Assembly (NCBI RefSeq): GCF_006345805.1
Contig: NW_021833741.1
Coordinates: forward strand, 1 to 64,000
From: Octopus sinensis
Taxonomy: Eukaryota
Length of the DNA stretch: 64,000 nucleotides
Reading direction: 5' to 3'
Every line of letters starts with the position of its first letter. Within the stretch, counting starts at the first letter, position 1. This document shows, piece after piece, positions 1,715 through 64,000 of this stretch. The translations under genes were made by a program, and so were the position numbers. Under the pieces are notes generated by a model. That model was given only the letters and a program-made list of their open reading frames with translations, ran no database searches and was not told the origin of the DNA.

Positions 1715-1799
1715 TGGACCTGATGAGTGACTATATTGAAATTGAATTGATGTTACTGTTATCAGTTTGAAAATATATCCACGAAACACTTGTAGTCTA
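1715..1799 (+). ncRNA. Type I hammerhead ribozyme motif (extended stem II)
   Basis: TGGAC-CTGATGA-GTG..CAC-GAAA-CACTTG-TA-GTCTA: intact core, stem I TGGAC/GTCTA, GUA cleavage triplet at 1792-1794. Confidence 0.7.
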
Positions 1800-1947
1800 T
1801 TTAGTAATTATATACTATCTATTTATTATTTCGTGCTTTATTTAGTTCTAGTGAAATGTTTTATCGTATATTTGATTTTTTTTATATGGTATGATTACTT
1901 ATATCATTGTTGAATTGCTACATGGTTCTTCTCTAATTCATATACAT

Positions 1948-62425: not shown

Positions 62426-62489
62426 AATCTATATCTATCTCTCTCTCTCTATATATATATATATACATGCATATATATATACATACATG

Positions 62490-62551
<62 letters not shown>

Positions 62552-62690
62552 CAATTAAGATTCAAGCGAGTTCAATTGAATTCACATGAATATGTACTTA
62601 ACTTGGATGCCCGGAATCTATATGGTGTTAACCATACGACAAGGTGGGGTGATTACAATAGGAAAAAAGCAACAAGAATGGATCAATATA

Positions 62691-62775
62691 TCGGTACAAT
62701 TGTTTCGTACGAAGACATCTTTAATAAGGCTACAAAAATTGCAGTAAATATAGGTGGCTCGTACTCATCAGCCGA
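62691..62775 (-). ncRNA. Type I hammerhead ribozyme (left arm of inverted repeat)
   Basis: Minus: TCGG-CTGATGA-GTACGA..TCGTAC-GAAA-CAATTG-TA-CCGA. Confidence 0.85.
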
Positions 62776-63006
62776 AAAAACATCTTCACATTCATCTTCA
62801 CTTTCATCTTCACTTTCATCTTCACTTTCTGGAAAACTAAGAGGTTTTGAAAATTTTTTTTAAAAACCTGATATATGACTGTGTAATACTAATTGAACTT
62901 TTAGAAACCAATTTGTTATCTAAATTCTCATTTTTATAGAACTTTCCATGATGTTTCACGAGTGTAACATTACCCCCTTTGATGTTTGGGAATCTCGGGT
63001 GTTTTT

Positions 63007-63091
63007 TCGGCTGATGAGTACGAGCCACCTATATTTACTGCAATTTTTGTAGCCTTATTAAAGATGTCTTTGTACGAAACAATTGTACCGA
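63007..63091 (+). ncRNA. Type I hammerhead ribozyme (right arm of inverted repeat)
   Basis: TCGG-CTGATGA-GTAC..GTAC-GAAA-CAATTG-TA-CCGA; canonical core; GUA at 63085-63087. Confidence 0.85.
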
Positions 63092-63128
63092 TATATTGAT
63101 CATTCTTTTCTTGTTGCTTTTTCGTTCC

Positions 63129-63162
<34 letters not shown>

Positions 63163-63282
63163 ATATAGATATATAATATATATATATATAATATATATAT
63201 ATAATTATATATATTATATATATGTATATATATTTATATATGTATATATTTATATATATTATATATAATTTATATATATATG

Positions 63283-63337
<55 letters not shown>

Positions 63338-63338
<1 letters not shown>

Positions 63339-63599
63339 CGTACATATGTTTCTTTTCTGGCTTTTATTAGACAGTTTATTTCAATGCATAATTGATGTAA
63401 TATGTATGTCAATTAGCCTTCTTCAGCCGCGCACAATTACCACTCCAAGGACATGTATTACATTACTGTCCAAACCTATAATGTAATACATGTCCTGGAG
63501 TGGTAATAGTGCGCGGCTGAAGAAGGCTATTGACATACATATTACATCATTATGCATTGATATAAACTGTTTAATAAAAGCCAGAAACATATGTACCGC
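63338..63599. ncRNA. Hairpin (about 125-bp arms, 13-nt loop) with HHR motifs on both strands
   Basis: Plus 63513-63599: GCGG-CTGAAGA-AGGCT..AGCCA-GAAA-CATATG-TA-CCGC; mirror on minus 63338-63430 with small indels. Confidence 0.8.
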
Positions 63600-63674
63600 T
63601 AAATCCTTTGCATCCTGTTTTTTCTTTTGATATATATATATATATATATATCATATATATATATATATATATAT

Positions 63675-64000
63675 GACTTTCTGAAGGATAGAAGTCAGGT
63701 GGTAGTAGCCACTTCCACTAACACGCAAATAGTGAGCGGTCTTCAGCAGGGCACTGTTTTGGACCACTACTGTTCATAATGGCCCTCTCAGACATGCCCT
63801 CAGTCATGCAGAGAGCCACGATCACAAGTTATGCAGATGATACAAAAGTTTCACAGGCAATACAGAACCCTGAAGACACTAAGCACCTGCAATGTGAGCT
63901 GGACAAAATTTACAAGTGGGCTGAAAAGAATAGCATGCAGTTCAATGCTGAAAAGTTTCAAGCTCTATGCTATCAGCACGCAAAACTAAATGCAATACCC
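63675..64000 (+). mobile_element. 5'-truncated LINE reverse transcriptase (CR1/L2 group), runs off the window
   Basis: SGLQQGTV/GPLLFIMALSDMP..SYADDTKV..LQCELDKIYKWAEKNSMQFNAEK (one frameshift); begins after (TA)n. Confidence 0.9.

Follow-up and report, generated by a model that had tools for sequence, protein, structure and literature searches.

An inverted, 5'-truncated copy accompanied by a tail on one side only is described as typical of insertions of Penelope-like elements (PLEs) (Craig et al. 2021, PMC8557442), and the same layout has been described for Penelope (Arkhipova et al. 2013, PMC3846280; Schostak et al. 2008, PMC2377424). PLEs of the Hydra clade are characterized by DKT, CxCX5C, and CxxC/CxH motifs, a (TA)n target, and a hammerhead close to the 3' end; the listing for Penelope-13_HM gives an inverted, 5'-truncated copy and one hammerhead per strand, and helix III of Penelope-2_NV is given as acaa-gt-ttgt (PMC8557442). 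Dual hammerhead motifs on opposite strands, 100 to 700 bp apart, have already been published (Cervera and de la Pena 2014, PMC4209133), and PLE minimal hammerheads with a palindromic helix III are described as weak and dimer dependent, with an inactive monomer (PMC4209133). In vitro, two internal start sites of reverse transcription define the tail of the Poseidon element PAc (Frangieh et al. 2024, PMC11167929); both strands are cut and extended, and insertion proceeds without need of cleavage (PMC11167929). Non-LTR retrozymes consist of direct tandem repeats of 150 to 450 bp with one hammerhead each (PMC7229834), and retrozymes are described as direct tandems in other sources also (PMC6765202; bioRxiv 10.64898/2026.07.22.740005). 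An earlier note on the DNA considered here started from the premise that known retrozymes have direct repeats, which agrees with these published descriptions (PMC7229834).

Within the window (the whole 64,000-nt stretch of Octopus sinensis DNA that was analyzed), inverted-repeat arms of 102 nt at 62681-62782 and 63000-63101 are 99% complementary, with a sole mismatch at 63071, and are separated by 217 nt; the arms continue with small indels out to about 62661 and 63128. The inverted repeat with a spacer of about 217 bp that the earlier note placed at 62663-62782 and 63000-63122 was thus found. The extent it gave for the unit (62663..63122) is right for the repeat and wrong at the boundaries, as a tail of about 110 nt, reaching left to about 62549, had been overlooked; the whole unit covers 62549-63128 (580 bp) and is asymmetric, the tail being carried by the left arm alone. 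When a 471-nt RNA was folded, the energy was -229.5 kcal/mol (z -27.9), and 0 of 100 shuffles were as good.

The unit comprises a tailed half on the minus strand (62549-62784) and an untailed half on the plus strand (62810-63128). On the left, a (TA)n target tract (62489..62548, start approximate) borders the tail (62549..62660, minus strand), which spans about 110 nt between two fixed end sites, is about 5 nt shorter than the usual end, and has the sequence of the 5' UTR of the full-length element. It is followed by the inverted 5'-truncated copy of the element 3' end, the hammerhead arm of the tailed half (62661..62784, minus strand), and by the inner junction (62781..62828, plus strand), where CATC is common to both halves and precedes four copies of a 12-mer that is present as two imperfect copies in the parent. 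This arrangement suggests that the junction may have been made by microhomology joining (CATC) with slippage. The "spacer" (62810..62999, plus strand) is the element 3' UTR and is collinear with the right arm, and the untailed element 3' end (63000..63128, plus strand) terminates at the inner of the two fixed sites, with TTCC followed by TA, next to a (TA)n-rich target tract (63129..63337). Both flanks are (TA)n, where a target-site duplication cannot be read, and the inner junction is devoid of (TA)n.

Each arm carries a type I hammerhead motif (CUGAUGA/GAAA/GUA) with a stem I of 4 bp, a stem II of 7 bp, a loop II of 44 nt, and a helix III of 2 bp inside the 8-nt palindrome ACAAUUGU, and both motifs face outward. 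The plus-strand motif (63007..63091) has stem I at 63007-63010/63088-63091, the core at 63011-63017, stem II at 63018-63024/63069-63075, the 44-nt loop II, palindromic helix III at 63079-63086, and a predicted cut after 63087, the position predicted from the motif in the earlier note also; the minus-strand motif (62691..62775) has its core start at 62771 and its predicted cut 3' of 62695. Under a relaxed motif definition the window yields 4 matches, against none across 50 block-shuffled versions, and no hammerhead family is present among the best 150 of 324 Rfam matches. The description of a fully canonical ribozyme on each strand therefore stands for the core on both arms and needs amendment for helix III, which is short, palindromic, and of the dimer type; the stem II insertion of roughly 50 nt is indeed a long loop, measured at 44 nt. 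Resemblance to the minimal hammerheads of PLEs (PMC4209133) extends to a helix II of 7 to 8 bp, a helix I of 4 to 5 bp, and the palindromic helix III, whereas the long loop II with an internal hairpin and the lack of a bulged base before stem II differ from those described.

A transcript of the unit had been expected to form a hairpin ending in a self-cleavage site. The hairpin is upheld and the site is not, as the whole sense hammerhead lies within the paired arm; on either strand, transcription reaches the antisense partner first, which pairs with the sense motif over its full length. For a read-through RNA of either polarity, the predicted energetic cost of adopting the hammerhead fold is 126 to 133 kcal/mol, and for isolated arms it is 5 to 10 kcal/mol, so that both hammerheads of a read-through RNA are predicted to be locked in the hairpin. 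The helix III palindrome could also form an 8-bp intermolecular duplex (-6.4 kcal/mol). Parts of the family are covered by contigs from three runs guessed to be RNA and from one run without a label, and these contigs are uninformative on the window copy; none of those listed spans the whole stretch.

The parent was found by a sequence search with the unit across the 2.7-Gb assembly, which returned 1584 first-look candidates, 40 of which were scored. In most of these 40 the right arm and spacer were matched as a single piece, which indicates that they are collinear in the parent and that it is the left arm that was added. Upstream, copies run on into a long element, and spacer plus right arm form the 3' end of a PLE of about 4.2 kb, in which some 600 nt separate the end of the ORF from the pLTR. 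A coding end on the minus strand of spacer plus left arm was considered and rejected; that strand holds a 59-codon open stretch, but the parent ORF is on the other strand. A full-length copy elsewhere in the assembly (L031, G000:C7:97837500-97844300) has the order inverted 397-nt pLTR, 5' UTR, 257-aa frame, in-frame stop, 779 aa, 3' UTR, arm, and tail, the tail being identical to the 5' UTR and the inverted, untailed pLTR at the 5' end being 99% identical to the 3' pLTR. The full-length unit starts exactly at the equivalent of the inner end site, abutting the inverted untailed pLTR. Such a layout would be expected if twin priming had acted on a tandem transcript. A source copy with an intact ORF was not seen, and the best one (L031) has one in-frame stop.

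Pfam matched 0 of 3 ORF pieces and gave one weak RVT_1 match with 21 aligned sequences, and PDB searches by sequence and by profile returned no match for the ORF; 34 protein relatives were found, most of them labelled PF26215. The 779-aa piece was modeled with a mean pLDDT of 62.9, its Asn-rich parts being disordered. The model resembles reverse transcriptases, of which telomerase is one (6zdp; Z 11.5, rmsd 2.8, 172 aligned), and its residues 651-756 matched the GIY-YIG domain of I-TevI (1ln0; Z 8.2, rmsd 2.6, 89 aligned). These features of endonuclease-positive PLEs are present: a predicted reverse transcriptase followed by a C-terminal GIY-YIG domain in one frame (L031, with one stop), a pLTR carrying a type I hammerhead, 5' truncation, an adjacent inverted copy, and a tail at one end that is the element's 5' start.

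Motifs of the L031 protein (RWR, DKT, YRDD, CNCRIKSKC, CQLC, and CIH), matched by eye to the published alignment rather than placed in a tree, fit the Hydra clade (Craig et al. 2021). DKT replaces DKG (VPADKTGN), the linker has the CxCX5C form (CNCRIKSKC), CxxC (CQLC) and CxH (CIH) surround the conserved E and N, and insertion is into (TA)n. The element shares motifs, (TA)n target, and a hammerhead near the 3' end with Penelope-13_HM, Penelope-2_NV, and Hydra-1_Obim. It differs from the Hydra-clade PLEs described (PMC8557442) in unit length (about 4.2 kb versus <3 kb, size being a general trait and not a diagnostic motif), in tail (about 120 nt versus 30 to 40), and in having RWR rather than RWK (RIRWR at the aligned position in L031, RWK in most relatives), and from the listed Hydra motifs in loop II (44 nt versus 3 to 10 nt). 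The greater length is attributable to two Asn-rich inserts in the L031 ORF (27% Asn), which are absent from most relatives. The hammerhead core sequence is absent from the supplement of Craig et al. 2021 (PMC8557442), and the element appears to represent a new Hydra-like family of known architecture.

An exact search of the assembly with a core 30-mer gave 78 matches (control, 0) that correspond to 64 sites, all of which were examined; duplicated insertions, with the same junction and flanks, were counted once or flagged. Fourteen of the 64 sites are divergent pairs, no two of which have the same spacing (range, 57 to 4546 nt); recurrence of the whole unit with fixed boundaries, a check that the earlier note had proposed, is thus not observed, the junctions being variable. 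The outer ends lie at either of two fixed sites: an inner site (TTCC then TA), which lies 33 to 35 nt beyond the hammerhead cut site in the RNA, and an outer site about 120 nt further on (AAACCG then TA), which is sometimes a few bases short. TA-rich flanks were found at 72 of 93 and 57 of 75 ends (129 of 168 in total). Larger duplications (G000:C6:12.68-12.85 Mb; C30 and C9833) repeat one two-ended and one single-ended insertion.

Two outward-facing ends are present at 28 of the 64 sites, and in all 28 one end is tailed and the other untailed. The remaining 36 sites are single ended, 18 tailed (four of which are duplicates of one locus) and 18 untailed; from these 18:18 singles, the chance of 28 one-of-each pairs among 28, were the ends independent, is about 4e-9. 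Searches with tail patterns returned 10 and 86 matches, from which 50 loci outside the 64-site set were scored, with four more C6 duplicates left out. Twenty of these 50 are two-ended, all with one end of each kind (L176 and L178 are one duplicated locus), which brings the tailed-plus-untailed pairing to 48 of 48 two-ended copies. One tandem and one tail-to-tail pair occur among the 50 tail-anchored loci and no divergent tailed pair does, this set being one that cannot reveal untailed pairs.

Inner junctions of the 28 two-ended copies, as defined by BLAST edges, overlap by 1 to 14 nt in 15, leave a gap of 0 to 6 nt in 6 and of 18 to 25 nt in 2 (one being the window copy), and have >500 nt between the scored halves in 5. 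The further-reaching half is the untailed one in 15 of 28 and the tailed one in 7, the two being equal within 5 nt in 6. Subfamily variants agree between halves in 28 of 28 insertions at one site (14.6 expected) and in 9 of 9 (3.2 expected) and 21 of 23 (11.9 expected) at other diagnostic sites, and in 26 of 27 the distance between the halves of one insertion is smaller than the mean distance between insertions; the same comparison on 7 loci alone is weak, and homopolymer indel sites are not concordant. Likeness of the arms could also stem from later gene conversion. Inner junctions recur on the hammerhead's own palindromes (about TTCGTACGAA and ACAATTGT) in L098, L138, L146, L162, L170, L175, and L142, giving minimal fold-backs without a complete ribozyme. 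Six other loci (L070, L073, L075, L093, L113, and L019) have an inverted internal segment at the 5' junction instead of a second end, and these internal inversions resemble LINE-1 twin-priming inversions.

None of the 162 halves starts at the hammerhead cut site. Five or six of the 162 start 3 nt beyond it, at ATATAT microhomology, and 12 of 95 tailed halves start at the inner site; the idea that 5' ends cluster at the cut or at the edge of stem I was considered and rejected, as starts instead rise smoothly toward the 3' end. Because both end sites lie 3' of the cut, halves running through it were presumably copied from uncut or re-ligated RNA.

The PLE origin of the window unit is near certain, and the earlier suggestion of a PLE inverted-pLTR product is supported by the full-length parent, the two-ended copies, and the fold matches to reverse transcriptase and GIY-YIG domains. 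Very probably, the unit is a dead 580-bp insertion in which two 5'-truncated copies of the PLE 3' end stand head to head, likely from one event with two target-primed starts of reverse transcription. Observed features are the parent element, outer ends at two fixed sites, an inner junction that varies among copies, the pairing of one tail with no tail, and subfamily variants shared by the halves; paired priming from two fixed RNA sites, which we infer from them, is the probable source of the pairing and of the shared variants. The GIY-YIG domain would nick both strands of the (TA)n tract, one free end would prime at the inner RNA site, and the other would prime at the outer site about 120 nt further. 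Both cDNAs would copy through an uncut or re-ligated hammerhead and stop early, and their 3' ends would be joined through microhomology, in the window copy CATC with slippage. The template may be one RNA read twice, two repeats of a tandem RNA, or two RNAs; L031 would fit a tandem. The two hammerheads are then passengers of end duplication. Counted against this explanation are the 36 of 64 sites with one end and the 5 of 28 two-ended copies with >500 nt between the scored halves.

Paired priming of this kind is like the in vitro reaction of Poseidon PAc (PMC11167929) in its two start sites bracketing the tail, its AT-rich target, its cutting and extension of both strands, and its uncut RNA template. 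The start sites are in the ORF there and in the 5' UTR here, and no coupling of strand to site was seen there in vitro. With Poseidon start sites not differing between the strands (PMC11167929), the one-of-each coupling is unexplained by that published biochemistry. It is conceivable, if rather doubtful, that Hydra-clade PLEs undergo obligatory twin priming by a dimeric reverse transcriptase-endonuclease that uses two fixed RNA sites once each and never the same site twice, with the helix III palindrome pairing two pLTR copies rather than cutting.

The rival that survives best, though unlikely, keeps the PLE origin and attributes the inversion to a palindrome at which a single cDNA primes itself (snap-back), or at which self-priming occurs on an antisense template. 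For rotifer Penelope, palindromes of this kind led to the proposal of antisense-template self-priming (PMC3846280), and both the recurrence of junctions on the motif palindromes and the 6 of 28 copies with inner ends equal within 5 nt are in its favor; a single folded cDNA, however, predicts that the tailed half is always the longer, which is contradicted by the 15 copies with a longer untailed half, and the two outer ends resemble priming sites in being precise and facing (TA)n. A pair of independent insertions into one (TA)n tract and a local inversion-duplication at a later time are both disfavored and very improbable: the (TA)n targeting makes clustering possible, yet the inner junction of the window copy has no (TA)n, the copies are always divergent with one end of each type, and their halves have subfamily variants in common. 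The idea of a separate class of non-autonomous ribozyme element, rod-like and ambisense, mobile as a unit and self-cleaving in both polarities, is largely refuted and barely credible, for although the hairpin is real, each strand has a hammerhead core, and the layout recurs genome-wide, there is no fixed junction, the spacer is plain parent 3' UTR, the ends are asymmetric, the predicted costs of the ribozyme fold given above indicate that arm pairing would abolish it, and with divergent ribozymes neither strand can yield a released monomer. The variable junctions and the predicted effect of arm pairing correspond to both outcomes that the earlier note had named as refuting.

Other classes of small element were also considered. 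An ambisense viroid-like rod is a fixed unit whose two polarities each contain a ribozyme that can fold, and a MITE has symmetric terminal inverted repeats and a uniform length; here the unit is not fixed and the ribozyme fold is buried by arm pairing, and the ends are always asymmetric and the lengths vary. Non-LTR retrozymes (PMC7229834; bioRxiv 10.64898/2026.07.22.740005) are similar in their type I hammerhead, small size, and pLTR-related sequence, but they are direct tandems that release monomers and circles, whereas the unit is an inverted, variably truncated stump. Parallels are also found in the Penelope elements of D. virilis (PMC2377424) and Adineta vaga (PMC3846280), which have head-to-head repeats of variable size with a tail on one, palindromes at the junction, and Asn-rich ORF inserts. 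They belong to another clade, and the tail is optional there and obligatory on exactly one half here.

Further hammerhead families occur in the window. A second fold-back family adjoins the unit at 63338-63625, with a hammerhead at 63513-63599 (plus strand), the helix III palindrome ACATATGT, and a loop II of about 45 to 50 nt; the window copy has a decayed inverted mate on its left, with the end cut short. This family (1294 first-look candidates) is unrelated in sequence to the main unit, and its link to a C-terminal endonuclease region (47% identity with the L031 protein) comes from one locus, L202. Both ends are present in 14 of its 23 loci, with tailed and untailed ends paired in 14 of 14 and a tail of about 70 to 75 nt. 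The third family (1420 first-look candidates) has a motif at 1716-1800 (plus strand) in a repeat at about 1590-1950, a long loop II, and a helix III that is ACACGTGT in 5 relatives and decayed in the window copy; in L184 a related reverse transcriptase frame lies just downstream (31 to 41% identity). Across the three window families, the helix III palindrome is kept despite changes (ACAAUUGU, ACACGUGU, and ACAUAUGU), and loop II is 44 to 50 nt throughout. A broken LINE-type reverse transcriptase fragment (YADD) at about 63680-64000 (plus strand) runs off the end of the window.

Inverted 5'-truncated copies, a one-sided tail, and hammerheads on opposite strands are already published for PLEs, and the window unit as an object is ordinary, having the known layout of a PLE insertion. 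Added here are the rule of one tailed and one untailed end (48 of 48, and 14 of 14 in the neighboring family) and the subfamily variants shared between halves (28 of 28); this pairing of ends and the hammerheads with a long loop are the parts worth keeping. Caution is called for with divergent hammerhead pairs of animal genomes, which are PLE stumps and not ambisense viroid-like RNAs. The presence of one end of each kind in two families is a genomic constraint on how PLE inverted pLTRs and the tail form.
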